In this document: one piece after another, positions 93 through 63,769 of the stretch
How positions within the stretch are numbered: the stretch's first letter is position 1
How the letters are laid out: each line of letters starts with the position of its first letter
DNA from: Altibacter sp.
Lineage (GTDB): Bacteria; Bacteroidota; Bacteroidia; Flavobacteriales; Flavobacteriaceae
NCBI RefSeq assembly: GCF_019913785.1
Contig: NZ_JAIOHK010000060.1
Location: forward strand, 1,826 to 65,825
Direction of reading: 5' to 3'
DNA: 64,000 nt
Translations under genes and position numbers: made by a program
Notes under the pieces: generated by a model
Seen by the model: only the letters and a program-made list of their open reading frames with translations
Database searches by the model: none
What the model was told of the DNA's origin: nothing

Positions 93-104
93 TGATATTT
101 ATCA
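93..104. promoter_or_regulatory. FNR/FixK-like box TGATATTTATCA
   Basis: Perfect TGAy-N4-rTCA. Its centre is 64.5 nt upstream of the DUF302 start. Confidence 0.6.
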
Positions 105-162
105 TAGTATCTTTTGGTGTTGCGGTCTAATTTTGTCATGAATACATAAAAAACCAAATAGT

Positions 163-558
163 ATGAGTTATTATATATCCACCACGCTTCAGAATAGTTC
201 ATTTGACGAAGCAATAGAAAGAATCACAGCGGAACTTAAAAAAGAAGGCTTTGGCATTCTAACAGAGATTGATATCAAAGCGACTTTACAAAAAAAATTG
301 GATGTCGATTTTTATAACTATAAAATTCTTGGAGCCTGTAATCCGCCCTTTGCCTATAAGGCATTACTAGCTGAGGATAAAATAGGTACCATGTTGCCGT
401 GTAATGTAATTGTTCAGGAAAAGAAGCCGGGAACTATTGAAGTTTCGGCTGTAGATCCAGTGGCTTCAATGGTTTCGGTGAAGAATGAACATTTGGGAGA
501 ACTGGCACTAGAAATTCAGAAAAGATTAGAGAAGGTGATTAACAGTCTTCAGAAATAG
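163..558 (+). CDS. DUF302-family small protein
   Basis: 131-aa ORF. By-eye resemblance to DUF302 proteins (..GFGILTEIDIKATLQKKL.., ..LPCNVIVQE..). FNR-like box at 93..104 lies upstream. Confidence 0.5.
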   Translation: MSYYISTTLQNSSFDEAIERITAELKKEGFGILTEIDIKATLQKKLDVDFYNYKILGACNPPFAYKALLAEDKIGTMLPCNVIVQEKKPGTIEVSAVDPVASMVSVKNEHLGELALEIQKRLEKVINSLQK

Positions 559-578
559 GTTTAAACGAAGGGGAGCAC

Positions 579-590
579 TGACGAATATCA
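579..590. promoter_or_regulatory. FNR/FixK-like box TGACGAATATCA
   Basis: Centre is 64.5 nt upstream of the hpf start. Confidence 0.6.
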
Positions 591-648
591 TATTTTAAAA
601 ACGCTTTCCGTAGTACTTTTATCCTACTAGTAATTAAAGATTTTAAAT

Positions 649-948
649 ATGACTATTCGAATTCAATATGTGAAAATACCTACTAGCGAAAGCATGTCGG
701 ATTATGTAACAAAAAAGCTCGAAAAATTGAGTGCTAAGTACAACTGGCTTATCAATGCCGATGTATATTTTAAATATGAGAACGACCCTACCGGTAAACG
801 AGACACTTGCGAAATTGAATTGAGCCTTCCCGGGCCTAGAATATTTGCAACCTCAACCGATAAAAATTATGAATCTGCTGTAAAAAAAGCGATTTCAGAT
901 TTAGAAAAACAGCTTAAAAAACGCAAAGCAACCTTTACAACTCATTAA
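649..948 (+). CDS. hpf: ribosome hibernation promoting factor (short HPF/RaiA, S30EA family)
   Basis: 99 aa. The N-terminus (IRIQYVKIPTSESMSDYVTKKLEKL) and C-terminus (AVKKAISDLEKQLKKRK) are typical of HPF/RaiA. Box at 579..590 lies upstream. Confidence 0.8.
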   Translation: MTIRIQYVKIPTSESMSDYVTKKLEKLSAKYNWLINADVYFKYENDPTGKRDTCEIELSLPGPRIFATSTDKNYESAVKKAISDLEKQLKKRKATFTTH

Positions 949-958
949 ATTCTAACCC

Positions 959-3556: not shown

Positions 3557-4456
3557 TTAACTTATTAATGGGTTGAATTTGTACTTTCGGAGCACGGGTA
3601 GTAATCGCACCAAAGGGATCTTTATGGAATAGGTTCCCGTATACGAAGGACAGATTACACAATCGTCGAAATAGAATTCAACAAAGGTTTCGTCCACCAC
3701 AAAGTTGTTTTTATATTCGAAGAAATCTTCTTCAGAAATCTGCCAACAGTCATAGAAAAATTCTCCGGAAGCAATCTTTTCCTGTAGGAGTTCATTTAAA
3801 ATAACCCGCAGTTCTTCCTCCGAGCCATCGTTAAAAAAATCTTCATAATTCATAAACACGGCACGGTTGAGGTCGAAATTGAGGCAGTCAAACGTATAAG
3901 ATGGATGCATGGCACCGGAGTAGTAATTTTCCTTGTAGAACAAAACACTAATCAATTTTTCATTGATGTTATAAATCTTATAATCGACCAATCGTTTTTC
4001 ACGGTATCTGTTGGTACGCAGCGTGTCACAATACAATTCTTTATCTTCCAAAATTTGAGCCTCAACACCTTTTATATCGATATAATACTTTTGAACGTAT
4101 TCGTTAAAATTTCTATAGGAAGGTTTTAAGGCTTCATTGAGGTGAGGATATTTAAAGTCGAGTACATAAAGGTCTTCTTCTTTAAAAAAAGTCTTTGACA
4201 ATACCAGATCTTCTAATTGTACCCGTTCGTCTTCCTTCTTTATAAGTTCCTCCCGTTTTATTTGAATAGTTTGCTGTTTTCTCAAATCAATATCATGATC
4301 TGAAACTACCAACGAATCCTCAACAACATCGGTCACGTCTTCGATAGCATCGGTTTCCTTTTTTTGTGAATCATTTTTACAACTTATCAAAAGCCCAAAA
4401 ACAAGCAGGAGGGAAAGGTATTTCATAGATTTCATAGCGAGTGTATTATTGTTCAA
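3557..4456 (-). CDS. lipoprotein with DUF3298-like C-terminal domain
   Basis: Signal peptide plus lipobox (LLISC). YYSGAMHPSYTFDCLNFDLNRAVFMNYEDFF resembles the DUF3298/PdaC-C-terminal pattern. Several in-frame Met make the start ambiguous. Confidence 0.45.
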   Translation of the reverse strand: MNNNTLAMKSMKYLSLLLVFGLLISCKNDSQKKETDAIEDVTDVVEDSLVVSDHDIDLRKQQTIQIKREELIKKEDERVQLEDLVLSKTFFKEEDLYVLDFKYPHLNEALKPSYRNFNEYVQKYYIDIKGVEAQILEDKELYCDTLRTNRYREKRLVDYKIYNINEKLISVLFYKENYYSGAMHPSYTFDCLNFDLNRAVFMNYEDFFNDGSEEELRVILNELLQEKIASGEFFYDCWQISEEDFFEYKNNFVVDETFVEFYFDDCVICPSYTGTYSIKIPLVRLLPVLRKYKFNPLIS

Positions 4457-4850
4457 GTTCGAGTTTTAGTCTGGTGAGTAGGATTAATTCCGATTTGTTT
4501 TTTCCTGAAAAGGCATCGGCTATGGCATTGGCTGTAATCCAGATAAGTTTTTTTCGTTTCAAACTAAACAGACTAGGATGTTCTTTTTTAAAATATTTGA
4601 AATCCTTAAAACATGCATCTGCATCGAGCGAATTATAATCGAGCCAACCAAAGACAATTTCTATTTGATAGGCAGCGTCAGAGTGGAATTCGTCTTCATA
4701 GTCGTCCAGTTTAATCCAATGGCTATTCACAATGTCGATAAGTGCCTCGTATTCCGATTTTCGCACTACTTTATCCGCAGCCGCAACAGCATAGAACAAC
4801 TTACCAATAATTTGATAGAATTCTATTTCGGGTTTTGGTACTTCACGCAT
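4446..4850 (-). CDS. TerB-like hypothetical protein
   Basis: 134 aa. GKLFYAVAAADKVVRKSEYEAL resembles the TerB-type ADG-x-x-x-x-E motif. Weak by-eye call. Confidence 0.35.
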   Translation of the reverse strand: MREVPKPEIEFYQIIGKLFYAVAAADKVVRKSEYEALIDIVNSHWIKLDDYEDEFHSDAAYQIEIVFGWLDYNSLDADACFKDFKYFKKEHPSLFSLKRKKLIWITANAIADAFSGKNKSELILLTRLKLELEQ

Positions 4851-4905: not shown

Positions 4906-4917
4906 TGATAAAAATCA
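4906..4917. promoter_or_regulatory. FNR/FixK-like box TGATAAAAATCA
   Basis: Lies in the divergent region. Centre is 45.5 nt from the kinase start (4957) and 61.5 nt from the TerB-like start (4850). Confidence 0.6.
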
Positions 4918-4956
4918 GTTCTGAAAACCAGCAATAAAATTGTTACTTTTGGGGAC

Positions 4957-6180
4957 ATGAAGGTTTTTGAGGAGAAAAAAGGGAATATTTTTAAATTACT
5001 TTCTGAAGCTATTTCGGAAGGCATTATTATTGTGAATGTACAGCAAGAAATTGTCGCTTCCAATGGTGTTGCTAATGTAATGTTTGGCTACGAAGAAAAT
5101 GAGTTATTGGGTTCGCAACTTAATCGTTTAATTCCGAAGGATTATCGAAAAAAGCATACAGGTCATTTTGATAGTTTTATTGAAAAAAGCGACGTGAGGC
5201 AAATGGGGCATGGTCGCGATTTGTATGGTTTACGTAAGGATGGTACTGCTTTTCCCCTGGAAGCTGGATTAAATCCATTTGAAATTTATGAGAATCAATA
5301 TGTCATGGCTTTGGTGAGTGATATTACCATTCGGAAAAGGCAAGAACAGGAAATCAAAGAACTTAATGAGAGTTTAGAACTTCGTATTCAGCAAAGAACA
5401 ACAGAATTACGCCATAGTATTTCAGAATTAAAGGAAGAAGTGGCAAAGCGTAAGGAAGCAGAAAATAGAATAAAGGAATCACTTCGTAAGGAACGTGAAT
5501 TAAATGAACTTAAAACGAAATTCCTTTCATTGGTATCTCACGAATTCAAGACACCTTTAAGCGGAATTTTAACCTCGGCAACGCTGGTTGGAAAATACAC
5601 GTTGACAGAACACCAGGAAAAAAGAGATAAACACCTAAAGACGATCCAAAGCAAGGTTAAATATTTGAATAATATATTAGACGATTTTCTTTCTATTGAG
5701 CGCATTGAAACGGGTAAGGAAACGTATAAATTTAGTCTTTTTCCATTGAGTAAGGTGGTAAATGAGGTTATTTACGACGCTAATATGTTGTTGAAGGAAG
5801 GGCAAAAAATAAACTATCCTCAAAATATCGATGATATTATTGTTGAGTTTGATGAAAAAATATTGGAACTTGTTTTGACCAATTTAATTAATAATGCGAT
5901 TAAATACTCACCCGGAAATACCGCTATCGATGTTCGGGTTGATCAGAAAAAATCGAGCTTGTGTATTAGTATTCAGGATGAAGGCATGGGTATTCCAGCA
6001 AAAGAACAAAAGTTTATCTTTAACCGTTACTTTAGGGCAGAAAATGCCTTGTTGGATCAAGGTACGGGTATTGGACTCAATATTGCGAAAAGCCATTTGG
6101 AAAACCTAGGTGGGACAATTACCTTTACCAGCAAAGAAAATGAAGGAAGCATCTTTAAAGTAGAAATACCAATTAAGTAG
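4957..6180 (+). CDS. PAS-domain sensor histidine kinase (FixL-like PAS)
   Basis: N-terminal PAS (..KKHTGHFDSFIE..MGHGRDLYGLRKDGTAFPLEAGLNPF..), a coiled-coil linker, H-box SHEFKTPLS, N-box NLINNAIKYS, G1 DEGMGI and G2 GTGIGL. No TM segment, so it is predicted cytoplasmic. Confidence 0.85.
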   Translation: MKVFEEKKGNIFKLLSEAISEGIIIVNVQQEIVASNGVANVMFGYEENELLGSQLNRLIPKDYRKKHTGHFDSFIEKSDVRQMGHGRDLYGLRKDGTAFPLEAGLNPFEIYENQYVMALVSDITIRKRQEQEIKELNESLELRIQQRTTELRHSISELKEEVAKRKEAENRIKESLRKERELNELKTKFLSLVSHEFKTPLSGILTSATLVGKYTLTEHQEKRDKHLKTIQSKVKYLNNILDDFLSIERIETGKETYKFSLFPLSKVVNEVIYDANMLLKEGQKINYPQNIDDIIVEFDEKILELVLTNLINNAIKYSPGNTAIDVRVDQKKSSLCISIQDEGMGIPAKEQKFIFNRYFRAENALLDQGTGIGLNIAKSHLENLGGTITFTSKENEGSIFKVEIPIK

Positions 6181-6186: not shown

Positions 6187-7245
6187 ATGAAAACAATCCT
6201 TATCATCGAAGATGATGCAGCCTTGCGAGAAAACACGGCAGAGTTGTTAGAACTTTCAAACTTTAATGTCCTTACGGCACCTAATGGGAAATTAGGGATT
6301 GAAGTGGCAAAAAAGGAGCAGCCGGATATTATTGTTTGTGATATTATGATGCCCGAGGTAGATGGATATGGCGTGTTAGAAGCGCTTAATTCGGATGCAT
6401 TGACCAATCAAATTCCGTTTATATTTCTTTCGGCAAAAACGGAACATAAAGAAGTTCGCAAAGGAATGGATATGGGTGCCGATGATTACCTCACAAAACC
6501 GTTTGATGAAGAAGAACTTATAAGTGCGGTTGAAAGTAGGCTGGCCAAAGCAAGTTTGCTTGAACAAAAGATTAAAAATCAAAATGCCCAAACGGTTCAT
6601 GAAAATGATGATGATAGCCTGCGAAACTTGAATGAACTTAAAAATTTCTTCGATGATTACGGCAGTATTTTAACTTTTAAAAAGGGAGCCAGTATCTATA
6701 AACTTGGGGAGCATTCCAATAATATTTTCCTTATTTTAAAGGGGGTTGTAAAAAGTCATAAGATGGATGAAAGCGGAAAAGAACTCACCACGGCATTGCT
6801 TAAAGCCGATGATTTTTTGGGTTTCACCTCCTTCGATGAGAATGTTCCCTATACCGAGTCGGCTACGGCGGTAGAAAATGTAGAGCTCGCTGCAATCTCA
6901 AAAATGCAACTTAAGGAAGTGTTGGGTAAAAGTCAGGGGGTATCACTCGAATTAATGAACGTACTTACCGATAATCTTTCAGAAATAAAGGAACATCTCC
7001 TTCAAATGGCCTATGGTTCGGTGCGTAAGAAAACTGCACAAACTATTCTTCAGTTTGCCGAAATACTGGGTAAAACATCGGAAGACACCATTAAAATTTC
7101 GCGTAACGATCTGGCCAGTGTAGCCGGAATTGCTACAGAAAGCCTTATTAGAACCTTGTCAGGTTTTAAGAAAGACGGCCTCATTGAAATTGAGGGGAGA
7201 AACATAAAAATTTTGGATCTTCAGCAACTTCAATTAATTGAATAG
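6187..7245 (+). CDS. response regulator with REC domain fused to Crp/Fnr-type cNMP-binding-like domain and HTH
   Basis: REC has D9-D10, phospho-acceptor D52 (IIVCDIMMP), LSAK and TKPF. It is followed by a beta-roll effector domain (FKKGASIYKLGEHSNNIFLILKGVVK) and a Crp-type HTH (ISRNDLASVAGIATESLIRTLSGFKKDGLI). Starts 7 nt after the kinase gene. Confidence 0.85.
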   Translation: MKTILIIEDDAALRENTAELLELSNFNVLTAPNGKLGIEVAKKEQPDIIVCDIMMPEVDGYGVLEALNSDALTNQIPFIFLSAKTEHKEVRKGMDMGADDYLTKPFDEEELISAVESRLAKASLLEQKIKNQNAQTVHENDDDSLRNLNELKNFFDDYGSILTFKKGASIYKLGEHSNNIFLILKGVVKSHKMDESGKELTTALLKADDFLGFTSFDENVPYTESATAVENVELAAISKMQLKEVLGKSQGVSLELMNVLTDNLSEIKEHLLQMAYGSVRKKTAQTILQFAEILGKTSEDTIKISRNDLASVAGIATESLIRTLSGFKKDGLIEIEGRNIKILDLQQLQLIE

Positions 7246-7263: not shown

Positions 7264-7275
7264 TGACCATTGTCA
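7264..7275. promoter_or_regulatory. FNR/FixK-like box TGACCATTGTCA
   Basis: Centre is 58.5 nt upstream of usp ATG 7328. Identical in sequence to the norC box. Confidence 0.6.
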
Positions 7276-7327
7276 TTCTTTGCCTTGTTACATCAGGATA
7301 CATTTGTTTTTATTACAATGTATTGAG

Positions 7328-8216: not shown

Positions 8217-8228
8217 TGATAATTATCA
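8217..8228. promoter_or_regulatory. FNR/FixK-like box TGATAATTATCA
   Basis: Centre is 64.5 nt upstream of usp 8287, the first gene of the usp-usp-usp-ATPcone-MBL string. Confidence 0.6.
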
Positions 8229-8286
8229 TGTTTTTTCTGCTCCGGAAAACATAGCTTTGAACATAACCTCAAAATGAACAAAAACC

Positions 8287-9135
8287 ATGAGAAAGGTGTT
8301 AATTCCAACCGATTTTTCTGAGAACGCGATGAACGCGATTAAATATGCAATGGAGCTATTTAAATACGAGCGAAGCGAGTTTACAATTATGCATGCCTTC
8401 GCCGATGAGGTTTATGAAAACAACCTTGAAATGTCCCGCGAGCTTTTCGAAGAATACAAAGAAAAAGTGAAAGAGAGTTCCGACAAGGAATTGCAACAGG
8501 TATTAAGCGAAATGTTGGAAATTTCACCCAATCCTCGACACGAATATAATTTCATTTCGGTTTTTGGAAGTTTGGTAGATGAAGCCAATGATTTTGTAGA
8601 TAAGGAGAACATCGATGTTTTGGTTATGGGAACCAAAGGCGAAACAGATGATCGTAATCTTACGTTTGGCAGCAATACCTTGCAGGTAATTAAATATGTA
8701 AAATGTCCCGTATTGGCTATTCCGTCGACGTTTCACGATGTACATACAAAACGAATTCTCTTCCCAACAGATTACCTATTGCCTTTTCAAAGGCGAGAGA
8801 TAAAACTCCTGAGTACCATTGCCAAGAACTATGCGGCCACGATCAATTTTTTATATGTTTCCGATTTTAAAAAGATGTCCTTTAGACAATTGGATAATAA
8901 GTCGCTTATTGAATGTTATCTGGTTGATAACAATACTGCTTTTTATACCGAAGCCGGTACAGATATCACCAAGGGAGTCAATGAGTTTATTAAAAAGCAC
9001 AATGCCGATATGCTCGTAATGGTAAACACTAGACGATCGTATTTGGAAAATGTACTATACACCTCAACCATTCAAAAGATGGGATTGAACGTTCAAATTC
9101 CTTTTTTGGTGCTTCAAAATTTACCCCGATATTAA
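8287..9135 (+). CDS. universal stress protein, tandem Usp domains
   Basis: MRKVLIPTDFSENAMNAIKYA.. and VMGTKGETDDRNLTFGSNT. Paralogue of the neighbouring usp genes. Confidence 0.85.
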   Translation: MRKVLIPTDFSENAMNAIKYAMELFKYERSEFTIMHAFADEVYENNLEMSRELFEEYKEKVKESSDKELQQVLSEMLEISPNPRHEYNFISVFGSLVDEANDFVDKENIDVLVMGTKGETDDRNLTFGSNTLQVIKYVKCPVLAIPSTFHDVHTKRILFPTDYLLPFQRREIKLLSTIAKNYAATINFLYVSDFKKMSFRQLDNKSLIECYLVDNNTAFYTEAGTDITKGVNEFIKKHNADMLVMVNTRRSYLENVLYTSTIQKMGLNVQIPFLVLQNLPRY

Positions 9136-9151
9136 TGTTAAGTCAATTACA

Positions 9152-10003
9152 ATGAAAAAGATACTAGTCCCCACCGATTTTTCCGACAATGCCTACAACG
9201 CCATTCAATATGCCATGAAGCTTTTTGAAAAAGAAACATGTACCTTCTATTTGTTGAATACGTTTACTCCTGCTGCGTACAATGTGGGTGCCATGGCCGA
9301 CAGCTATTCGGCATTGCGCCTTCAGGAAATTGTTAAGGAAAATTCTGAAAATGAATTAGCCAGAATTGAAAAAAGCATCAAAAAAGAGTTTAACAATCCA
9401 AAACACAGTTTCGAAAAAATTGCCAGTTTCAATCTGCTGGTTATGGAAATTTTAGATATTATAGAGACTCATGATATAGATTTAATTGTAATGGGAACCC
9501 AAGGGGCTACAGGTGCTAAAGAAGTATTCTTGGGGACACATACTACATTCACTATTAAAAAGGTAAAATGTCCTGTGATAGCGGTGCCTTCCGGGTTTAC
9601 CTATGAAACCCCTAAAGAGATTTTATTTCCCACCGATTTTCGATTGAGTACGTCAAACAGATATTTGAAACTTATCAAAGATATCTGTGATTCGCATGTC
9701 GCCAGATTACATATTTTAAATGCCTATTACGAACCACTTGACGAAGAACAAAACAAGGTAAAGGACTTTTTGGATCAATACTTTAAAGGAAATGCCCACT
9801 TATTTCACTTGGCAGAAGATACAGATGTATTGGGGGCGATCGAAACCTTTCAGGTAAAACATAAGATCAATTTCTTAATTATGATCCACAATAAACATTC
9901 CTTCTTCGAAAACATGCTTTTTAAACCTGTTGTCAATCAAGTGGCCTACCATACCAATATTCCATTTTTAGTGATTCCTTCGGAACAACGAATGCTTCAC
10001 TAA
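9152..10003 (+). CDS. universal stress protein, tandem Usp domains
   Basis: MKKILVPTDFSDNAYNAIQYA.. and VMGTQGATGAKEVFLGTHT. Confidence 0.85.
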   Translation: MKKILVPTDFSDNAYNAIQYAMKLFEKETCTFYLLNTFTPAAYNVGAMADSYSALRLQEIVKENSENELARIEKSIKKEFNNPKHSFEKIASFNLLVMEILDIIETHDIDLIVMGTQGATGAKEVFLGTHTTFTIKKVKCPVIAVPSGFTYETPKEILFPTDFRLSTSNRYLKLIKDICDSHVARLHILNAYYEPLDEEQNKVKDFLDQYFKGNAHLFHLAEDTDVLGAIETFQVKHKINFLIMIHNKHSFFENMLFKPVVNQVAYHTNIPFLVIPSEQRMLH

Positions 10004-10018
10004 ATAAAACCAAGATAT

Positions 10019-10825
10019 ATGAAGAAGAGAATTCTAATCCCCACCGATTTTTCTAAAAATGCCTGGAATGCAATTGCATATGCCGCTGATCTGTACAAAC
10101 GAGAAGCAGTAGATTTTTATATTGTACACGCCTTCGGTAAATCAAGATCGAGCACAGCCGATCAACAGGCTGAAATCGGACTTCAGAAAACGCTAAAACT
10201 TCTCGAAATAAAAACAACATACCCTAACCATACTTATTTTACACTTGCTTTAGATATGCTACCACTTAGAGCAATCAAAGAAACCGTAGAGCGTAAAGAT
10301 ATCGAATTGGTCGTGATGGGGACCAAGGGAGAAACAGATGATAAGGATGTCTTCTACGGAAGCAACACGGTCGACGCCATGGAAAAGGTGCGAAACTGCC
10401 CGGTCTTAGCAATACCGGGAGACATTACATATCAAGACCCCAATGAAATTGTCTTTCCTACCAGTTATAAGACGCATTATAAAAGAAGAGAGCTGCGGTA
10501 TTTGTTTGAAATATCACGAATCACCAATGCACCTATTCGTATTTTGCACGTACAATCGGAGAAAAACCTGAGTCCATTGAAGCAAAGCAATAAGGAACTT
10601 TTGGAAAATTGTTTGGATGGGACTAATTATTCCTTTCATTGGTTGGAGAATGTGAGTGTGCAAGAAGGCCTTTTCAATTTTGTTTCTCAGCGAAATAGTG
10701 GTATGATTGCCTTTATAAATAAGAAACATCAATTCTTTGGCAGTATTTTTTCAAATCCTTTAGTGAAACAATTGGGGATGTATGCAACGATTCCGGTGTT
10801 GGCATTGCACGACCTTAGAAATTAA
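10019..10825 (+). CDS. universal stress protein, tandem Usp domains
   Basis: MKKRILIPTDFSKNAWNAIAYA.. and VMGTKGETDDKDVFYGSNT. Confidence 0.85.
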   Translation: MKKRILIPTDFSKNAWNAIAYAADLYKREAVDFYIVHAFGKSRSSTADQQAEIGLQKTLKLLEIKTTYPNHTYFTLALDMLPLRAIKETVERKDIELVVMGTKGETDDKDVFYGSNTVDAMEKVRNCPVLAIPGDITYQDPNEIVFPTSYKTHYKRRELRYLFEISRITNAPIRILHVQSEKNLSPLKQSNKELLENCLDGTNYSFHWLENVSVQEGLFNFVSQRNSGMIAFINKKHQFFGSIFSNPLVKQLGMYATIPVLALHDLRN

Positions 10826-10833: not shown

Positions 10834-11685
10834 ATGGGAAAAAAACAAGAGGAATCCATTGAGGTTGTAAAGTCATCGGGGCAAATCGTCCGGTTTTCAA
10901 TTGAAAAATTGAAAAATTCGTTACGTCGCAGCGGTGCCGATGAAAGCAGTGTTCAGCATATTGTGGATGTGGTACGGGATGAATTATATCAGGGTATTTC
11001 TACCAAAGAAATTTACAACCGAGCCTTTGCCTTATTGAAAAAGAAAAAATCAATTTACGCCTCGAAGTATAAATTGAAAAAAGCTATCTATGAATTGGGT
11101 CCCACCGGATTTCCTTTCGAAAAATTTGTAGCCTCTGTGTTGTTCTATTCAGGATACGGCGTTCAAACGGGTCAAATCTTACAAGGAAAATGCGTAACGC
11201 ATGAAGTAGATGTAGTGGCTCACAAAAATGGACAGTACATTGTGGCCGAATGCAAATTTCACAATGTGGAGGGAAGAAACTGTGATGTGAAGGTGCCGCT
11301 GTATATTCATTCTAGGTATCAAGACATTCTAAAATTTTATGAAAAGGAAATTCAACCGGGAAAGACCCCTAATGAAGGATGGGTGGTTACCAATACCCGA
11401 TTTACTTCAGATGCCTTGCAATACGGCAAATGTGTAGGTTTGAATCTGTTAAGTTGGGATTATCCTATTAACGATGGTCTAAAAGATCGTATAGACAGAT
11501 TAGGACTTTACCCCATAACCGTTTCCACCTTGCTTTCTCAACGAGAAAAGCAATTTTTATTAAGTAGAGATGTGGTGCTATGCAGGGAGTTGATAAATGA
11601 TGTGTTTTATTTGGATCACCTGGGAATTTCAGAAACTAGAAAGGCAAAAATCTTAAAGGAGATAAATATGTTATGTACTACTTGA
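10834..11685 (+). CDS. ATP-cone domain protein fused to PD-(D/E)xK (Mrr-like restriction-endonuclease fold) domain
   Basis: N-terminal ATP-cone-like segment (VVKSSGQIVRFSIEKLKNSLRRSGADESSVQHIVDVV..ISTKEIY). Then GFPFEKFVASVL..HEVDVVAHKNGQYIVAECKFH, which gives D..ExK nuclease-fold motifs. Confidence 0.65.
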   Translation: MGKKQEESIEVVKSSGQIVRFSIEKLKNSLRRSGADESSVQHIVDVVRDELYQGISTKEIYNRAFALLKKKKSIYASKYKLKKAIYELGPTGFPFEKFVASVLFYSGYGVQTGQILQGKCVTHEVDVVAHKNGQYIVAECKFHNVEGRNCDVKVPLYIHSRYQDILKFYEKEIQPGKTPNEGWVVTNTRFTSDALQYGKCVGLNLLSWDYPINDGLKDRIDRLGLYPITVSTLLSQREKQFLLSRDVVLCRELINDVFYLDHLGISETRKAKILKEINMLCTT

Positions 11686-11686
11686 T

Positions 11687-13057
11687 ATGGAATCGATTAA
11701 AATTCATTTTTTAGGAGCGGCCGGAACTGTAACCGGATCGAAATACTTACTGGAGACACCACAACAGAATATCTTGATCGATTGTGGTATGTTTCAGGGG
11801 CTTAAAGAATTGCGGGAGAAGAATTGGGAGCACTTGCCCATTGATGTAGCCTCTATCGATGTGGTCTTATTAACACATGGACATTTGGACCATACCGGAT
11901 ACTTGCCCAGATTGGTAAAACAGGGATTTCGCGGCAAAATAATTGGGACGGCACCTACTTTGGCTATTACAAAGATTATTTTGTTGGACAGTGCCAAGAT
12001 TCATGAAGAAGAGGCCCAAAGGGCTAACGAAGAAGGTTATTCAAAACACCATCCTGCCCAACCGTTTTATACCATCAAAGAAGCAGAAGTAACACTTGGA
12101 TTTTTTCAGCAGAAGGAAAAAGAGCAGTGGCATTCACTAACTGAAGATATTTCCTATAGGTTTTTGTACAACGGTCATATTATTGGAGCCACCTTTATCG
12201 AATTAAACCTCTTCGGAAAGCTATTCGTTTTTTCGGGAGATATTGGAAGAGAAAGTGATCTGTTATTGTTTCCGCCGGAACGCCCTACTCGGGCCGATTA
12301 TCTTTTTATTGAAAGCACCTATGGTAATAAATTGCACCCTGCGGAAAGCGTTTCAGAAAAACTGGTAGCGCTCATTTCACAAACCATTCATCAAAGAGGC
12401 GCCTTGATAATTCCTTCTTTTGCGGTAGAACGACTCCAAACTTTGATGTTTATCCTTTGGAAACTGTACAATGAAAATCGAATCCCTAACATTCCAATTT
12501 TTATTGACAGCCCTATGGGAAACAACGTACTATCTGTTTTTGAAAGCTTTCCCGATTGGCATAAAATTCCGCCGAAGGACTTTAGTGCCATGCAGCGTAG
12601 AATGAATATTATTACTTCCTACAAAGAAACCTGGGAAACTATTGACAATCCACAACCAAAAGTGGTGATTGCAGGAAGTGGTATGGTTACCGGAGGCAGG
12701 GTGTTAACCTATTTGCAGCAGCTTATAGATAAACCGGAAACGGCAGTTTTATTAGTTGGCTATCAAGCCGAAGGAACCCGCGGGCGGCAGTTATTGGAAG
12801 GAGCTCACGAATTAAAATTCTTCGGAAAGTATCGAGAAGTAAAAGCTCAGATTCATCATATTGAAAGTTTGTCGGCCCACGCAGATCAGCAAGGTTTGTT
12901 GGATTGGACGAGTCATATTAAAAACAATCCTGAAGATGTATTTTTAGTTCACGGTGAAGCTACTGCTCAAGATGCCCTTCGTGTTAAGTTTATGGATACC
13001 TATGGCTGGAAGGTGCAAATTCCGAAGCTATATGAAATAGTTGAGATTGAGATCTAA
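11687..13057 (+). CDS. MBL-fold metallo-hydrolase with beta-CASP / RNA-specificity domain (RNase J/CPSF-like)
   Basis: 456 aa. Motif LLTHGHLDHTGYLP (HxHxDH), FIESTYG, a beta-CASP segment and the C-terminal SAHAD motif (ESLSAHADQQGL). Confidence 0.8.
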   Translation: MESIKIHFLGAAGTVTGSKYLLETPQQNILIDCGMFQGLKELREKNWEHLPIDVASIDVVLLTHGHLDHTGYLPRLVKQGFRGKIIGTAPTLAITKIILLDSAKIHEEEAQRANEEGYSKHHPAQPFYTIKEAEVTLGFFQQKEKEQWHSLTEDISYRFLYNGHIIGATFIELNLFGKLFVFSGDIGRESDLLLFPPERPTRADYLFIESTYGNKLHPAESVSEKLVALISQTIHQRGALIIPSFAVERLQTLMFILWKLYNENRIPNIPIFIDSPMGNNVLSVFESFPDWHKIPPKDFSAMQRRMNIITSYKETWETIDNPQPKVVIAGSGMVTGGRVLTYLQQLIDKPETAVLLVGYQAEGTRGRQLLEGAHELKFFGKYREVKAQIHHIESLSAHADQQGLLDWTSHIKNNPEDVFLVHGEATAQDALRVKFMDTYGWKVQIPKLYEIVEIEI

Positions 13058-51646: not shown

Positions 51647-52573
51647 ATGAGTTTGGTAGATGATATATTACAGCTGAAAAAGGAGAAGAACGCAGTTATC
51701 CTCGCGCATTATTATCAGCAACCCGAAATTCAAGAGATAGCCGATTATGTGGGAGACAGTTTAGGGTTGTCCCAAAAAGCAGCTGAAACTGATGCTGATC
51801 TCATTGTCTTTGCAGGAGTGCATTTCATGGCAGAAACCGCAAAAATCCTAAATCCTTCAAAAAAAGTTGTACTCCCCGACCTGAATGCGGGTTGTTCCTT
51901 GGCAGATTCATGCCCGCCAAAAGCATTTTCAGAATTTATAAATGCACATCCCCATCATGTAGTGATCACATATATTAATTGCTCCGCAGAGATCAAAGCG
52001 ATGAGTGATATAGTTTGTACTTCTTCCAATGCCTTGAAAATTGTAAATTCAATTCCGAAAGAGGTACCCATTATTTTCGCACCCGATAAGAACTTAGGAA
52101 AATATATTCAGAAAGAAGCCGGTAGGGAATTGGTATTGTGGGACGGTTCGTGTATAGTCCATGAAGCGTTTTCCATTGAAAAATTACTCAGCTTGTACAA
52201 AGAACATCCCGGTGCGAAGATTATAGCACATCCCGAATCTGAAACCCATATCCTCGATACAGCAACCTATATAGGATCCACCGCAGGAATGATCAATTAT
52301 GTGAAGGAACATCCTTCTGAAAAATTTATCGTCGCGACCGAAGCCGGTATTCTTCATAAAATGCAGCAGGAAGTTCCTAATGCAGTGTTAATTCCCGCCC
52401 CTGCCGAAGAAGACAATACCTGTGCCTGCAGTGAATGTGCCTTCATGAAGCTAAACACTCTTCAAAAATTATACGACTGCTTATTGCATGAAACACCTCA
52501 AATTGAGGTACCTGAGGAGGTCAGAAAACGCGCCTTGCTTCCTATTGAACGTATGCTTGCCTTATCAAAATAA
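51647..52573 (+). CDS. nadA: quinolinate synthase
   Basis: [14 protein letters not shown] and the Cys ligand contexts (NAGCS, YINCSAE, CSEC region) are typical of NadA. Confidence 0.85.
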
Positions 52574-52574
52574 G

Positions 52575-54164
52575 ATGGTAGAAACTAATTTTCTTGTTAT
52601 AGGCTCTGGAGTGGCGGGATTGACGTTGGCAGTAAAATTGGCTTCAACTTTTCCAAATAAAAGGGTAACCATAGTTACCAAATCTAACGAATCTGAGTCC
52701 AATACCAAATACGCTCAAGGTGGTGTAGCTGCTGTCTTTAATGCAGAAGAGGACTCCTTTCAGAAACATATAATCGATACGCTTCAGGCGGGCGATGGCC
52801 TGTGTGATAAGAAAGTGGTGGAAATGGTGATAAAAGAAGGCCCCAAACGATTGTACGAGCTTATGGAATGGGGTGCGAGATTCGATAGGGATACTTCTGG
52901 AAAAGTCGCTTTGGGAAGAGAAGGAGGGCATTCCGAAGACCGGGTGCTACATCATAAAGACATGACCGGTTTCGAAATTGAACGTGCCCTGCTTGAAAAA
53001 GCACACCAACTTTCGAATGTGATACTTCTGCCGCATCATTTTGCCGTAGACCTTATAACCGAACACCATCTGTTGGATGCAAAAACAGATCGTATTTCCT
53101 GTTATGGCGCCTATGTGATGGATCAGATCTCAGGAAACATAATAACGATTAAATCGGATACCACAACCCTGGCGGCCGGTGGTTTGGGACAGGTGTATGG
53201 GCATACCACAAATCCTGCGGTAGCCACTGGCGATGGAATCGCTATGGCATATCGGGCAAAGGCTCGCATCAAGGATATGGAATTTATACAATTTCATCCA
53301 ACGGCATTGTATGATGGCAAAGAAGGTGCTTCCTTCTTAATCTCGGAGGCGGTTCGTGGTTTTGGAGCTTTGCTTCGAAATGGGAAAGGCGAACGATTTA
53401 TGTTGCGGTATGACCCCCGGGCCGAATTGGCATCGCGAGATATTGTTTCGCGAGCTATCGATTCTGAATTAAAAAAATTAGGAGATACCTGTGTGTATTT
53501 GGATTGCACGCATCTGAATATAGCTGAGTTTGAACATGAGTTCCCAACGATCTCCGAAACCTGCAAAAGTAAAGGAATAATACTTTCTAAAGATTGGATT
53601 CCGGTAGTACCGGCAGCGCATTATGTATGTGGCGGTGTTGAAGTTGATGTACACGGCAGGACTTCTGTATTAAATTTATTCGCTTGCGGGGAATGTTCGA
53701 GAACAGGTCTGCACGGTGCTAACCGACTCGCATCGAACTCACTTTTAGAGGCCTTAGTGTATGCGCATAATATCTTTGAATACCACTGTAAGTATTCGTT
53801 GTCTTCATCGACCATTAGCATTCCATATTGGAATGATGAGGGCGTTGTCTTCTTGGAAGAACATAAAATACTTCAAAAAAAGATAAAAAAATTACAAAAA
53901 TTAATGCGGCGATATGTCGGTATCCTGAGAAGTAATGCAGAATTACAAAAAGCATCAACAGAGCTGGATAAACTATATGTCGAAACCGAAAGGCTTTATC
54001 AAAAACACAAATTAAACACCTCCCTTTGTGAACTGCGAAATATGGTAAACGTAGCACACATGATTATTGATCAATCACTGAGTCGTACTGAAAATAGGGG
54101 AGGATATTTTAATATGGATAATTTAATAAAAAAGACAAAATCTTATGGAAAAATTGATCACTGA
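52575..54164 (+). CDS. nadB: L-aspartate oxidase
   Basis: FAD motif VIGSGVAGL, plus QGGVAA, HPTAL and GLHGANRLASNSLLE. Start set to ATG 52575 (MVETNF), 2 nt after the nadA stop. Confidence 0.85.
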   Translation: MVETNFLVIGSGVAGLTLAVKLASTFPNKRVTIVTKSNESESNTKYAQGGVAAVFNAEEDSFQKHIIDTLQAGDGLCDKKVVEMVIKEGPKRLYELMEWGARFDRDTSGKVALGREGGHSEDRVLHHKDMTGFEIERALLEKAHQLSNVILLPHHFAVDLITEHHLLDAKTDRISCYGAYVMDQISGNIITIKSDTTTLAAGGLGQVYGHTTNPAVATGDGIAMAYRAKARIKDMEFIQFHPTALYDGKEGASFLISEAVRGFGALLRNGKGERFMLRYDPRAELASRDIVSRAIDSELKKLGDTCVYLDCTHLNIAEFEHEFPTISETCKSKGIILSKDWIPVVPAAHYVCGGVEVDVHGRTSVLNLFACGECSRTGLHGANRLASNSLLEALVYAHNIFEYHCKYSLSSSTISIPYWNDEGVVFLEEHKILQKKIKKLQKLMRRYVGILRSNAELQKASTELDKLYVETERLYQKHKLNTSLCELRNMVNVAHMIIDQSLSRTENRGGYFNMDNLIKKTKSYGKIDH

Positions 54165-54762
54165 AGCTGTAAAGGCTGGAATGACCTATGCTGAATATAA
54201 CTCACTTTTTAAGCGATTGGTTGAGGCCGGCCGCACAACAGGCGAATCGACAACCGAAAAGATTACATACACAAAATTGAATTTTAGTAGAAGTAAACGT
54301 TTGGACAAAACCTTTTTCCTGACCGATATTCAAGCCAAGCAATTTAGGAGCCTGACACAAAAACAAACCTGGCTTGTTATTACAGAGCCATGGTGTGGTG
54401 ATGGAGCACAAACGCTCCCCTTATTGCACCGAATAGCAGAAACATCTCCACACATAGATTTGAAAATAGTACTTCGAGACGATTATCTCGATCTTATGGA
54501 CGCATTTTTAACCAATGGATCTCGATCTATTCCGAAGCTAATTATTTTGGACGAACATATGGAAGTGTTGGGGGACTGGGGACCGCGCTCAAATGCCGCA
54601 ACACAAATGGTAACCGATTACAAGACGACGCATGGAAAAATTGATGCAGCGTTTAAAGAAGAATTACAGCGCTGGTATAACCAAGACCGAGGACAGGCTA
54701 TAATTAAAGAACTACTGGCATTGATTCCTGTTATTGCAAAAGGCGCACTAAAAGAGGTCTAA
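54145..54762 (+). CDS. thioredoxin-fold family protein
   Basis: 205 aa. The WCGDG motif lies in a thioredoxin-like context. Overlaps the nadB end by 20 nt. Confidence 0.55.
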   Translation: MEKLITEAVKAGMTYAEYNSLFKRLVEAGRTTGESTTEKITYTKLNFSRSKRLDKTFFLTDIQAKQFRSLTQKQTWLVITEPWCGDGAQTLPLLHRIAETSPHIDLKIVLRDDYLDLMDAFLTNGSRSIPKLIILDEHMEVLGDWGPRSNAATQMVTDYKTTHGKIDAAFKEELQRWYNQDRGQAIIKELLALIPVIAKGALKEV

Positions 54763-61049: not shown

Positions 61050-61105
61050 AAGGACTAATTTAATATAATGGGTGCAAAAATTGACCTATATAAGGTCTTA
61101 AAAAA

Positions 61106-61117
61106 TGATATTTATCA
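61106..61117. promoter_or_regulatory. FNR/FixK-like box TGATATTTATCA
   Basis: Centre is 62.5 nt upstream of the porin start (61049, minus strand), which heads the nirK operon. Confidence 0.6.
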
Positions 61118-61264
61118 TAGAAATAACTCATTTATCTTTTACACATAGTTTCAAACATTTTCAGCTTGACAAGCTTTGTTAGTTTCGTATACGAAGATAC
61201 TCCTTTTGCTTTTAGTAGCTATAAGACAAAAAATAATTGTTGTCTAAATAAGGTTGTAGCCTTC

Positions 61265-61276
61265 TGATATTTATCA
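61265..61276. promoter_or_regulatory. FNR/FixK-like box TGATATTTATCA
   Basis: Centre is 48.5 nt upstream of ccoI. Confidence 0.6.
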
Positions 61277-61318
61277 TATTTTAGTAGATGAACAATTAAA
61301 ACCTTTGCACCGGGTATA

Positions 61319-63739
61319 ATGAGCAAATTAAATGGGATGGTTACGTGCTTTCATTGTGGAGACGAATGCTTAGATATAAAGATCGAACAAGACGAAAAGT
61401 CGTTTTGCTGCCATGGCTGTAAAACGGTTTACGATATACTGCACGAAAATGACTTAGGTTATTATTACGATCTCGAAAGTACACCCGGCACCTCACCTAA
61501 TTCGATAGAAGGGAAATTTGATTATTTAGACAACACGACGATTGCTGAAAAACTGCTGGAATTCAACGATCAAAACTTTCAGATAGTCTCCTTTACAATT
61601 CCATCCATACACTGTAGTTCATGTATTTGGGTTTTAGAAAATCTGAATAAACTTCAAAAGGCTGTACAAACCTCACAGGTTAATTTTCCTGAAAAGACAG
61701 TCAGAATTACATTCAATGCTGAAGAGATTTCGTTAAAAGAGTTAGTGATCCTACTGAGTAGAATAGGATATGAACCTACAATCTCCTTAGAAGATTCTCA
61801 AAAGAAGAAAAAGGAATATAACCGAAGCCTCACCTACAAATTAGGGATAGCGGGATTTGCGTTTGGAAATATCATGTTCCTGTCGTTTCCCGAATATTTT
61901 GAAGTGCAGGAATTTTGGCTTGATCAGTTCAAACACGTCTTTCGCTGGCTAATGTTCGCCTTTTCGCTTCCTGTTGTGTTTTACTCGGGACGCGGCTATT
62001 TTATTTCTGCCTACAAAGGACTCCGCTCGGGATTTTTGAATATAGATGTTCCCATCGCCATTGGGATTGCAGTTTTATTTATTAGAAGTACTATCGATAT
62101 TTTTTTCGATTGGGGTTCGGGTTTTTTCGACAGTCTCACAGGTTTAATTTTCTTCTTATTATTAGGAAAATTCTTTCAGCAAAAAACCTATGCCTTTTTA
62201 TCTTTCGAACGTGATTATAAATCGTATTTTCCAATTGCCGTAACCAGATTGCTGCGTTCTAAAAGCGGGTTGATTTCTGAAGAACAGGTGGAAGTGTATG
62301 AAATATCAAAAGGCGACCGACTGCTAATTCGCAATAATGAGATATTACCGGTGGATGCCATTCTTATTAAAGGAAATGCACTCATAGACTACAGTTTTGT
62401 AACCGGTGAGGCCGAGTTGGTGCGTAAAACGAGTGGGGATAAACTATTTGCCGGAGGAAAGCAACAGGCGGGAATTCTTGAAGTGGAAGTGCTTAAGCCC
62501 ATTTCACAGAGTTATTTGACACAGTTATGGAGTAACGAAGCCTTTAGTAGTGAAAAACCCAATCTGTTTCAATCGCTTACCGATAGTATTAGTAAGCGAT
62601 TCACCATTGGTGTGCTTTCTATTGCAGTGATTGCAACGGTTTTTTGGTTGCTGGTAGACCCGTCAAAGGCGTTCAATGTGTTTACCGCAGTGTTGATTGT
62701 GGCATGTCCTTGTGCCATAGCATTAGCATCTCCATTTACTCTTGGGAATATGTTACGCATCTTCGGTAGGAATAAATTGTACCTAAAAGAAGCCTCCGTC
62801 ATTGAACATATGGCAAAGGTAGATACGGTTGTTTTTGATAAGACTGGAACCCTTACCACCCATAAAAAAAATAGTATCACCTATGAAGGAATCTTACTTT
62901 CTGAAGAAGAAATAGTCCTTTTAACGAGTTCGCTTCGCGCCTCCAATCACCCATTGAGTCGTGCGCTGTATGCTATTTTGGATAAGAATAACATTCAGAC
63001 ATTGGATGCTTTTGAGGAAGTGACCGGGAAGGGAATTTCGGCAAGGCAGAACGGAATGCGCTTAAAGATTGGGTCGAAGGCTTTTGTGGAAAAGGATATT
63101 TCGATAGCTGCACCGATTTCCTCAGATAATCTAGCCAAAACAGCTGTGCATGTGAGTAGTAATGATGACTATAAAGGATGTTATATTTTTCAGAATAAGT
63201 ACAGAGAAGGCGTCTCCGAAATTTTCGAAACACTTCATCGGGGTAGCGAAGTGATTGTACTTTCGGGAGACAATGAAGGAGAGCGAGAACGATTAGAGCA
63301 GCTACTCCCAAAGGGCACGGAACTCTATTTTAATCAAAAACCGGATGACAAACTTGAATTTGTAAAAAACCTTCAGCAATTAGGAAAATATGTAATGATG
63401 GTTGGAGATGGTTTAAATGACGCCGGAGCTTTGAAGCAAAGTGATGTGGGGATTGTAATTTCAGAAGATATCAATGTGTTTTCTCCTGCCTGTGATGGTA
63501 TTTTAGACGCATCTCGATTTCAATACCTAACAAGCTATTTACAGCTTTCCAAGAAGGCGATCAAAATTATAAAATGGAGTTTTATACTATCGCTGGCCTA
63601 CAACTTAATAGGGTTGTCTTTTGCTGTTACGGGTAATTTAATGCCTGTAGTTGCGGCAATATTAATGCCTTTGAGTTCCATAAGTATTGTAGTTTTTACT
63701 ACCTTGGCAACGCAGTATGTGAGTAGAAATTTAAAATGA
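61319..63739 (+). CDS. ccoI: heavy-metal (Cu) translocating P1B-type ATPase, CcoI/FixI type
   Basis: N-terminal Cys-rich ribbon (CFHCGDEC..CCHGC), CPC motif (VACPCAIA), DKTGTLT and GDGLNDAGAL. Followed by ccoS. Confidence 0.85.
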   Translation: MSKLNGMVTCFHCGDECLDIKIEQDEKSFCCHGCKTVYDILHENDLGYYYDLESTPGTSPNSIEGKFDYLDNTTIAEKLLEFNDQNFQIVSFTIPSIHCSSCIWVLENLNKLQKAVQTSQVNFPEKTVRITFNAEEISLKELVILLSRIGYEPTISLEDSQKKKKEYNRSLTYKLGIAGFAFGNIMFLSFPEYFEVQEFWLDQFKHVFRWLMFAFSLPVVFYSGRGYFISAYKGLRSGFLNIDVPIAIGIAVLFIRSTIDIFFDWGSGFFDSLTGLIFFLLLGKFFQQKTYAFLSFERDYKSYFPIAVTRLLRSKSGLISEEQVEVYEISKGDRLLIRNNEILPVDAILIKGNALIDYSFVTGEAELVRKTSGDKLFAGGKQQAGILEVEVLKPISQSYLTQLWSNEAFSSEKPNLFQSLTDSISKRFTIGVLSIAVIATVFWLLVDPSKAFNVFTAVLIVACPCAIALASPFTLGNMLRIFGRNKLYLKEASVIEHMAKVDTVVFDKTGTLTTHKKNSITYEGILLSEEEIVLLTSSLRASNHPLSRALYAILDKNNIQTLDAFEEVTGKGISARQNGMRLKIGSKAFVEKDISIAAPISSDNLAKTAVHVSSNDDYKGCYIFQNKYREGVSEIFETLHRGSEVIVLSGDNEGERERLEQLLPKGTELYFNQKPDDKLEFVKNLQQLGKYVMMVGDGLNDAGALKQSDVGIVISEDINVFSPACDGILDASRFQYLTSYLQLSKKAIKIIKWSFILSLAYNLIGLSFAVTGNLMPVVAAILMPLSSISIVVFTTLATQYVSRNLK

Positions 63740-63757
63740 AACTAAATAAATCAAAGC

Positions 63758-63769
63758 TGATAAATATCA
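63758..63769. promoter_or_regulatory. FNR/FixK-like box TGATAAATATCA
   Basis: Centre is 56.5 nt upstream of ccoS. Confidence 0.6.

Follow-up and report, generated by a model that had tools for sequence, protein, structure and literature searches.

We analyzed a stretch of 64,000 nucleotides (nt) from Altibacter sp. (Flavobacteriaceae; contig NZ_JAIOHK010000060.1, positions 1,826 to 65,825 of the forward strand), referred to here as the window, in which genes for denitrification, high-affinity respiration and survival stand behind copies of a short palindrome, TGAy-N4-rTCA, referred to here as the box. The same window encodes a histidine kinase followed by a response regulator in which a receiver (REC) domain is fused to a Crp-type DNA-binding module:

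4957-6180, plus strand: soluble histidine kinase with PAS, HisKA and HATPase domains
6187-7245, plus strand: response regulator of 352 amino acids (aa) with REC, a cNMP-binding-like barrel and HTH_Crp

The box is almost certainly a real transcription factor site embedded in promoters. Its distribution, its position relative to the promoter and its recurrence in related genera are described below, followed by the genes that it serves and by the kinase-regulator pair that may act through it.

A box at a fixed distance from the -7 element

The window was scanned for exact matches to the box (TGAYNNNNRTCA). Genes were taken as the longest tiling open reading frames (ORFs) and named by Pfam, and the remainder, 3,455 nt at 30% GC, was treated as intergenic DNA. 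Nineteen exact matches were found, against 4.61 ± 2.15 in dinucleotide shuffles, and none of 100 shuffles reached 19. Seventeen of the matches are intergenic, where 0.29 would be expected (Poisson P = 1.6e-24), an enrichment of about 60-fold, and these are the 17 copies that an initial annotation of this DNA had reported. The other two lie within the 60.5 kb of coding sequence, at 13173 inside the Mrr_cat gene and at 41238 inside nrdD, a number that fits the chance rate. The odds ratio between intergenic and coding DNA is about 150 (Fisher P = 4e-20); the motif is thus about 150-fold less dense in coding DNA, and the refuting result named for it in advance, an equal density within coding sequence, did not come about.

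Most of what had been said about the form of the box was also confirmed. The base to the right of the core is T or G at all 17 sites, as proposed; the base to the left is A or C at 16 of the 17, and this part of the rule fails at the box at 93, which carries a T. The ATATTTT tail described on the gene side recurs, with TCAtatttt common after the boxes. The start-codon distances hold as well, the box centers lying 45.5 to 86.5 nt away and exactly 64.5 nt away at 93, 579, 8217 and 30268; these distances require later ATGs than those of the longest ORFs at two genes (7328 rather than 7280, and 49259 rather than 49199).

Each box was then oriented towards the gene that it serves, and the DNA beyond it was searched for the -7 element of Bacteroidetes sigma-A promoters, TAnnTTTG, accepted with at least 5 of its 6 specified bases. 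The element starts exactly 23 nt past the last base of the box at 16 of the 17 window sites, and at 24 nt in the remaining case, norC. A -7-like match occurs at a frequency of 0.014 per intergenic position, which gives a binomial P of 4e-24 for 16 of 17 sites at this one offset. In Flavobacterium psychrophilum, a map of transcription start sites places TAnnTTTG at -12 to -5, with a median 5' untranslated region of 24 nt (PMC9723704). Because of the 23-nt spacing, a -7 element so placed would set the box at -47 to -36, with its center at -41.5. Class II activators of the Crp/Fnr family canonically bind at this position. The proposal of class II sites with short leaders is therefore supported by the rigid spacing to the -7 element and by the F. 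psychrophilum map. The distance from the end of the -7 element to the ATG is 11-49 nt in 15 of the 16 canonical window sites for which an ATG start was found, and in related loci its median is 19-25 nt for most target classes, which fits short leaders.

At boxed promoters the -33 position is filled by the box and its T-rich tail (TCAT-w-TTtt). Among promoter candidates, a TTG within -38 to -30 was seen in 7% of those with a box and in 19% of those without; the control set is small and noisy, and the difference is too weak to rely on. Since the box sits where a -33 element would be, we propose that transcription from these promoters needs a class II activator, and the promoter-side T with the T-rich tail probably makes a polymerase contact that replaces the -33 element. 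A scan of the window for sigma-70 -35/-10 promoters stayed at the chance level (62 against 54.6 expected), and terminator calls were uninformative.

The strictness of this arrangement also separates exact boxes from degenerate ones. There are 76 one-mismatch boxes in the window, and none of them has a -7 element at +23. Two of these, at 13960 and 43509, had been put forward as degenerate copies; both are present as described, yet neither has a -7 element at +23 or +24, and since no one-mismatch site has the promoter element the two are indistinguishable from chance matches.

To extend the analysis beyond Altibacter, genomes were scanned for the regulator gene, one genome per species, which gave at least 596 confirmed stretches. 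The best 80 were taken with 10-kb flanks (1.51 Mb in total); all 80 loci were selected through the regulator gene and come from other Flavobacteriaceae, in genera other than Altibacter; Zobellia, Maribacter, Arenibacter, Aquimarina and Dokdonia are among the genera that have the locus. They contain 536 exact boxes, of which 415, read in one orientation or in both, have a -7 element at +23, and every locus has at least one such promoter. With orientations counted apart (533 boxes), 438 -7 matches fall at offset 23, compared with 3-21 at the other offsets between 1 and 49 and 44 at offset 0. Control palindromes with permuted half-sites and the same composition gave 61-125 matches, with a -7 element at +23 in 0-4 of them. 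The logo of 437 oriented sites reads AA[C/A]TGA[T/C]-a-w-w-T-[A/G]TCA-T-w-T-T-t-t. It is asymmetric: the promoter-side base after TCA is T in 95%, and the distal flank is C in 52%, A in 39% and T in 6%. The 23-nt spacer and the outer flanks hold no information, from which it follows that the boxes do not form a repeat family. In the regulator neighborhoods, 73 of 141 stringent promoter candidates are boxed. Conservation of the boxes upstream of orthologues in related flavobacteria had been named as a check on the motif, and the same architecture is found in all 80 loci.

These results bear directly on whether the boxes could have arisen by chance or as relics of a repeat or mobile element. A short motif is favored by AT-rich intergenic DNA, and the two coding copies do occur at the chance rate. 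However, the roughly 60-fold intergenic enrichment, the lack of information in flanks and spacer, the conserved arrangement upstream of orthologues and the negative permuted controls leave this explanation with practically no probability. The offset histogram, the intergenic enrichment and the control palindromes already refute it.

A second alternative is that the box is a repressor operator over the -35 region, so that the genes are derepressed. The overlap of the box with the would-be -33 element is compatible with this, and the box at the kinase/regulator promoter, which is out of register there (see below), could act negatively. However, occlusion would tolerate variable positions, whereas the spacing to the -7 element is exact to a single base at 415 of 536 sites, and exact spacing speaks for activation because face-specific contacts between an activator and RNA polymerase require it. 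The -41.5 position is the one canonically used for activation in this family, and the lower frequency of TTG in the -33 region, itself weak evidence given the noisy control, points in the same direction. We consider a repressor operator very unlikely.

Genes behind the boxes

The boxes of the window, their -7 elements and the genes assigned to them are as follows.

93-104, plus strand: box TGATATTTATCA; -7 element TAATTTTG at 128-135; DUF302 gene (163-558)
69-62, minus strand: second -7-like element by box 93, TACATTTA
579-590, plus strand: box; -7 element TACTTTTA at 614-621; hpf (649-948) and a tandem-USP gene (959-1795)
4906-4917, minus strand: box common to divergent promoters; -7 element TAATTTTA at 4882-4875; gene for a 134-aa protein (4850-4446)
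4941-4948, plus strand: -7 element of the kinase operon, TACTTTTG; perfect, 26 nt from box 4906 and 8 nt before the kinase ATG
7264-7275, plus strand: box, 19 nt past the regulator stop; -7 element TACATTTG at 7299-7306; USP gene (ATG at 7328, to 8167)
8217-8228, plus strand: box; -7 element TAGCTTTG at 8252-8259; three USP genes (8287-10825)
26575-26586, minus strand: box; -7 element TATATTTT at 26551-26544, minus strand
26622-26633, plus strand: box; -7 element TATTTTTA at 26657-26664; hsp20 (26704-27147)
30212-30223, minus strand: box; -7 element TACATTTA at 30188-30181; USP gene (30164-29331)
30268-30279, plus strand: box; -7 element TACTTTTG at 30303-30310; cytochrome c, fasciclin and nosZ (30338-33498)
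37695-37706, plus strand: box; -7 element AATCTTTG at 37730-37737; acetyl-CoA hydrolase/transferase (37754-39046)
41557-41568, plus strand: box; -7 element AATATTTG at 41593-41600, the sole 24-nt spacing; norC, norB, norQ, norD and a COX3-like gene (41649-46776)
49137-49148, minus strand: box; -7 element TAGCTTTA at 49113-49106; ADP-forming acetyl-CoA synthetase (49085-47004)
49193-49204, plus strand: box; -7 element TACTTTTA at 49228-49235; cytochrome c (ATG at 49259) and the gene for a divergent COX1-family (NOR-like) protein (49680-51005)
51574-51585, plus strand: box; -7 element TAATTTTG at 51609-51616; nadA, nadB and a thioredoxin_9 gene (51647-54762)
61106-61117, minus strand: box; -7 element AATTTTTG at 61082-61075; porin, nirK-cytochrome c, FGE-sulfatase-like (nirV-like), SCO1 and ScdA genes (61049-56138)
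61265-61276, plus strand: box; -7 element AACCTTTG at 61300-61307; ccoI/fixI (61319-63739)
63758-63769, plus strand: box; -7 element TAATTTTA at 63793-63800; ccoS (ATG at 63820)

The initial annotation had described the genes served as a coherent set, and this reading stands: low-oxygen and N-oxide genes lie behind the boxes, and the set is that classically associated with FixK, FNR and Anr, joined by a group of genes that resembles a dormancy set. The count of five usp transcription units was too high, as four boxed units contain usp genes. In the 80 related loci the most frequent boxed targets are USP genes (in most loci) and the gene for the 134-aa protein (46 loci), followed by hpf (16), ccoI (14), ccoS (13), hsp20 and trx (11 each), a ROK kinase gene (6), the nos-leading cytochrome c gene (5) and hemN (3). 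For hpf, which 19 loci carry, the orthologue is boxed in 16.

Several transcription units extend beyond the genes listed. The genes nosL, nosD, nosF and nosY (to 37690) were assigned to box 30268 via read-through, and box 8217 probably also drives the genes for an ATP-cone protein (10834-11685) and a beta-CASP protein (11687-13057). Downstream of the gene for the 134-aa protein are genes for a 299-aa protein, trx, deoC and PNP. The minus-strand -7-like element at 69-62 suggests a divergent promoter running off the window. Past the right end of the window, in a longer contig of the same organism, the operon of box 63758 continues with ccoNO, ccoQ, ccoP, ccoG and ccoH. A further exact box with a perfect -7 element lies about 10 kb past that end (L081:22296-22307) and faces a gene for a 454-aa radical-SAM HemN-like protein; between the window and this box are ccoS-NO-Q-P-G-H and a DsbD-like gene.

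Box 26575 had been interpreted as a distal box of hsp20. Its -7 element lies on the opposite strand, towards the TetR/efflux operon, and for this reason it more likely serves that divergent operon. It most likely drives the TetR gene (26417-25821) and the OEP/HlyD/ABC efflux genes through a long leader of about 126 nt. A role as a distal class I site for hsp20 was considered and rejected, as the box is 47 bp from the proximal box and on the opposite helical face. At boxed hsp20 genes, a second box is missing in 10 of 11 other genomes and lies 154 nt upstream in the eleventh.

Other parts of the window gave no promoter of their own. Neither a promoter nor a box was found in the window for nrdG, norQ, nosD or the gene termed unk197. 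Upstream of nrdG and nrdD (39170-41487, anaerobic ribonucleotide reductase) is a 123-nt gap (39047-39169) with no box and only weak -7-like matches, and these two genes are probably read through from the CoA-transferase promoter. An Rfam scan of the window returned no matches, and hence no riboswitch accounts for long gaps such as that before nrdG. A GC-rich hairpin with a T-run is found 3' of nosZ (33499-33602; gacgggag...ctcccgtctttt), and a hairpin with the tail ttttc is found 3' of hsp20 (27148-27210). These hairpins suggest that transcripts are terminated or attenuated within what appear to be long operons; the genes that follow them showed no promoter element of their own.

Additional observations concern individual genes. 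The 134-aa protein (4446-4850, minus strand) is among the most conserved box targets and its gene is always divergent from the kinase gene; it has no Pfam or NCBIfam match, and searches of both databases with the four target proteins of unassigned family (134, 147, 219 and 299 aa) gave nothing significant. The ATP-cone (283 aa) and beta-CASP/RMMBL RNase-like genes (10834-13057) have no promoter of their own and recur near the regulator in 22-24 loci; the pair may be an RNA-turnover arm of the response. On the minus strand at 13072-14656, an Mrr_cat restriction-endonuclease-like gene and a PycTM (Pycsar effector-like) gene are flanked by the usp/beta-CASP operon and by a gene for a 619-aa pyruvate-kinase-barrel protein, with no cyclase gene evident alongside. 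Homologues in the 80 related loci number 24 for the Mrr_cat gene and 1 for the PycTM gene, and the segment may be a defense-type insert. The boxed second heme-copper-oxidase pair (49259-51005) consists of a cytochrome c and a 441-aa COX1-family protein with about 23-27% identity to NorB-like sequences, and it may represent an uncharacterized NOR family. An unboxed, divergently oriented gene for an Rrf2-family (NsrR/IscR-like) regulator (51015-51461) adjoins this pair.

The kinase and the receiver-Crp regulator

The PAS domain of the kinase resembles heme-binding oxygen sensors. Its best PDB matches are the heme domains of FixL from Sinorhizobium meliloti and Bradyrhizobium japonicum and of Escherichia coli DosP (E = 2e-12 to 1e-10). 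In an ungapped alignment with B. japonicum FixL, kinase H67 falls on the proximal His200 and R87 on the FG-loop Arg220, and among orthologues H67 and R81 are each kept in 76 of 77. On this evidence the kinase is somewhat more probably a heme-based oxygen sensor than a sensor of another kind.

The regulator is the sole Crp-family protein encoded in the window. It is 100% identical to a protein of an Altibacter sp. metagenome-assembled genome, and its orthologues occur in many genera at 58-87% identity. In 77 of 80 loci the kinase gene immediately precedes the regulator gene in the same orientation, and a box-promoter follows within 200 nt of the regulator stop in 71 of 79 loci, mostly at 9-38 nt. 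A box upstream of the kinase gene is present in 42 of 77 loci. The operon of the kinase and regulator had been counted among the genes served. A box is indeed present there, at 4906, while the canonical register is not: the box fits the divergent gene for the 134-aa protein, and the -7 element on the kinase side stands at 26 nt. In general the -7 element belonging to this operon stands 24-26 nt away from the common box, most often 25 nt in the relatives, and precedes the start codon by 3-6 nt in most of them (8 nt in the window). This placement suggests that the kinase/regulator mRNA is a conserved leaderless, perhaps constitutive, transcript.

Among 17 orthologues, the REC switch residues D9, D10, D52, S82, Y101 and K104 and the entire recognition helix are invariant. 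In a PDB search the C-terminal module matched proteins of the Crp/Fnr fold, namely GlxR, Mycobacterium tuberculosis CRP, FNR, CAP, DNR, NtcA and FixK2. The module was aligned with E. coli CRP and FNR. The recognition helix reads T317-E318-S-L-I321-R322, and E318 and R322 align with FNR E209 and R213 and with CRP E181 and R185, which read the G:C pairs of TGA/TCA. At the position of FNR S212, the regulator has I321. FNR S212 reads the outer T of TTGAT, and the isoleucine in its place matches a motif that lacks this outer T. None of the FNR cysteines is aligned in the regulator, the N-terminus of which is the REC domain, and the cAMP contacts in the phosphate-binding cassette of CRP are not kept, E72 standing opposite a gap and R82 opposite a tyrosine. 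It is therefore unlikely that the barrel binds an Fe-S cluster or cAMP, and the input would have to enter via REC.

A search of a protein library for the fused family returned 2,102 proteins at E ≤ 1e-30. The best 150 representatives at 50% identity include 134 of full length (325-380 aa), in which E318 is kept in 133, R322 in 134, D52 in 128 and K104 in 129, and residue 321 is isoleucine in 99. The fused REC-Crp architecture is a large family, with at least 596 stretches and at least 134 clusters at 50% identity.

The regulator had been named as a candidate binder of the motif, and the synteny of the locus and the recognition helix across orthologues strengthen this candidacy. We infer that the REC-Crp protein is likely to bind the box. 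A second Crp-like gene as a constant neighbor was looked for and rejected, as one lies within 10 kb in only 9 of the 80 loci and none lies in the window.

It is also conceivable that the box is a genuine class II site bound by another, stand-alone Crp/Fnr paralogue (FNR-, Dnr- or NnrR-like, responding to O2 or nitric oxide (NO)), the REC-Crp protein being a neighbor or a member of the regulon. Bacteria commonly have Crp/Fnr paralogues, and the nine loci with a second Crp-like gene nearby are in keeping with this proposal, as are the kinase/regulator promoter that is out of canonical register with its box, the NO-handling genes in the regulon (nor and ScdA) and the Rrf2 regulator close by. Against it, no further Crp-like gene is found in the 64-kb island or in 71 of the 80 loci, and the regulator gene is flanked by boxes very consistently across genera. 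Furthermore, the recognition helix is invariant, as is the motif, and the helix departs from FNR exactly where the motif departs from the FNR box. We regard another paralogue as an unlikely binder and keep the REC-Crp protein as the preferred candidate.

Proposed mechanism and comparison with known systems

Taken together, the results lead us to propose that a FixL-like kinase and a fused FixJ/FixK-like regulator bring about class II activation under low oxygen in one step, a reading that we hold to be reasonably likely as a whole. The evidence for binding by the regulator and for the signal is comparative and structural. Low oxygen would activate the adjacent soluble kinase, which would phosphorylate D52 of the regulator. 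A dimer of the phosphorylated regulator would then bind AA[C/A]TGA[T/C]-N4-[A/G]TCAT at -41.5 and recruit RNA polymerase to sigma-A promoters in the class II manner. The response would switch on a survival set (six USP genes, hpf and hsp20), high-affinity respiration (ccoI, ccoS-ccoNOQP-GH and the HemN-like gene), denitrification (nirK, norCBQD, the second NOR-like pair and nosZ), fermentative and acetate enzymes that yield ATP, and NAD synthesis. In effect, the rhizobial cascade from FixL through FixJ to FixK would be condensed to a single two-component step.

That the box activates, and does so under low oxygen, we infer with good confidence. When oxygen is limiting, F. psychrophilum induces its cbb3 operon along with HemN, a cytochrome c, thioredoxins and UspA, and this response lends the direction of regulation experimental support from a related genus.

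Several points weigh against this proposal. The arginine equivalent to FixL R220, R87, is kept in just 59 of 77 orthologues of the kinase. Autoregulation is doubtful because the -7 element of the kinase operon is 24-26 nt from the box rather than 23. The motif of the 437-site logo lacks the outer T/A of the FNR consensus. Other Crp/Fnr paralogues may be encoded elsewhere in the genome, beyond the window. Finally, the AlphaFold model of the regulator is of moderate quality (pLDDT 72.6, pTM 0.39), with three modules and a low-confidence linker at 131-148, and is too weak for the manner in which REC controls the Crp module to be read from it.

The first of these points is also relevant to the nature of the signal. 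The REC-Crp protein might bind the box while the kinase senses NO, carbon monoxide (CO), redox state or another PAS ligand, in which case the regulon would serve nitrosative or redox stress. Heme-PAS and related sensors, such as DosS and DosT, respond to NO and CO as well as to O2. The DosR regulon itself responds to hypoxia, NO and CO (PMC3721108). The incomplete conservation of the O2-contacting arginine and the presence of nir, nor and nos among the targets are in line with such a signal. However, the core targets across genera are usp, hpf, hsp20, ccoI, ccoS and hemN rather than the N-oxide reductases, the cbb3 and HemN genes of F. psychrophilum are induced by oxygen limitation, and structurally the PAS domain is closest to oxygen sensors. 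No test made here gave an indication that the regulon depends on NO. A signal other than oxygen seems improbable to us, and oxygen remains the preferred one.

We lean, if only slightly, to the broader view that the Flavobacteriaceae share an undescribed master hypoxia switch, composed of a heme-PAS kinase and a receiver-Crp/Fnr hybrid (a natural FixJ-FixK fusion) that is phosphorylated by the kinase and would activate a promoter class of its own, with its operator in place of the -33 element. One flanking observation concerns the spread of the locus: a 432-kb contig labeled as an "uncultured Alteromonas sp." metagenome-assembled genome (CAZBWO010000001.1; L014) carries the regulator at 71% identity with 9 boxes around it, and is probably a mis-binned or mislabeled flavobacterial contig.

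The Flavobacteriaceae are usually treated as strict aerobes. On particles, where oxygen becomes depleted, marine members are main degraders of algal matter, and some carry nitrous oxide (N2O) reductase and are a sink for this greenhouse gas. If the proposal is true, the system would be the first phospho-activated branch of the Crp/Fnr superfamily with a defined regulon, one that in Altibacter includes a clade II N2O reductase. Given nothing but a genome, a rule consisting of the box, 23 nt and TAnnTTTG would predict the low-oxygen regulon; it would reveal the taxa that are able to persist or denitrify in micro-oxic niches, and would flag uncharacterized response genes such as those for the second NOR-like oxidase, DUF302 and the 134-aa target. 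The mechanism would illustrate how class II activation is grafted onto the unusual Bacteroidetes promoter and that the Crp/Fnr fold can be driven by phosphorylation, not by a ligand or an Fe-S cluster. For genetic work in Bacteroidota, the kinase-regulator pair could be used as a compact oxygen-responsive switch of expression.

A full-text search of literature open without subscription found no paper that describes this motif, the kinase or the fused regulator from Flavobacteria or Bacteroidetes, and the literature searched contains no comparable class of activator-dependent flavobacterial promoters. The closest known system is FixL-FixJ-FixK of rhizobia and Caulobacter (TTGAT-N4-ATCAA). Both systems start from a heme-PAS-like kinase and end in a DNA-binding module of the Crp/Fnr type, both have a TGA-N6-TCA core centered at -41.5, and their targets include fixNOQP/ccoNOQP, fixGHIS/ccoGHIS, hemN, nir, nor and nos; nos is under the control of FixK2 (PMC5582078). 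FixK is a stand-alone protein whose level is set by FixLJ, whereas in Altibacter the receiver is fused to the Crp module in one 352-aa protein. The Altibacter system lacks both the LuxR-type output of FixJ (REC with a LuxR/GerE HTH) and the transcriptional relay. Its box lacks the outer T/A of the FixK box, and the box is paired with the -7 element of Bacteroidetes promoters in place of a sigma-70 -10 element.

Similarly, FNR and Anr of Proteobacteria share with this system the TGA-N6-TCA palindrome, the class II position, control of anaerobic respiration together with usp genes, and the E and R of the recognition helix. In contrast to FNR, the Altibacter regulator has neither the N-terminal cysteine cluster nor the central cysteine, and so lacks the [4Fe-4S] sensor; its helix reads T-E-S-L-I-R where FNR has E--SR, with isoleucine in place of serine, and the signal is predicted to enter by phosphorylation of REC.

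DosS/DosT-DosR of M. tuberculosis also places a heme-sensor kinase and a response regulator over USPs, Hsp20/alpha-crystallin, a ribosome-hibernation-type factor and anaerobic nucleotide metabolism. The output of DosR is of the NarL/LuxR type, its motif is a different one and its kinases use GAF domains, whereas the Altibacter output is of the Crp type and its sensor is a PAS domain; the likeness is one of functional analogy, not homology.

The lxa locus of Burkholderia cenocepacia (about 50 genes) is strikingly parallel to the window in content and in number of sites: it holds six USPs, an alpha-crystallin, a ribonucleotide reductase and a P-type (cation) ATPase, has TGA-N6-TCA at 17 intergenic points and is needed for anoxic persistence (PMC3721108). 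It differs in phylum, in promoter type and in candidate regulator, the lxa regulator being merely suggested to be Anr/Fnr-like (PMC3721108), and the Altibacter island additionally carries denitrification and cbb3 genes.

Finally, the boxed promoters resemble Bacteroidetes sigma-A promoters (-33 TTTG and -7 TAnnTTTG) in having a -7 element at every box, a placement like that in F. psychrophilum and short leaders, and differ from them in that the box and its T-rich tail occupy the -33 position. Overall, the regulon is of a known kind, represented by the FixK/FNR/Anr boxes of Proteobacteria, by the lxa locus and, by analogy, by the DosR regulon. What is different here is the fused receiver-Crp regulator with a FixL-like kinase, the class II site set on a Bacteroidetes -7 element with single-base precision, and the phylum in which they occur.

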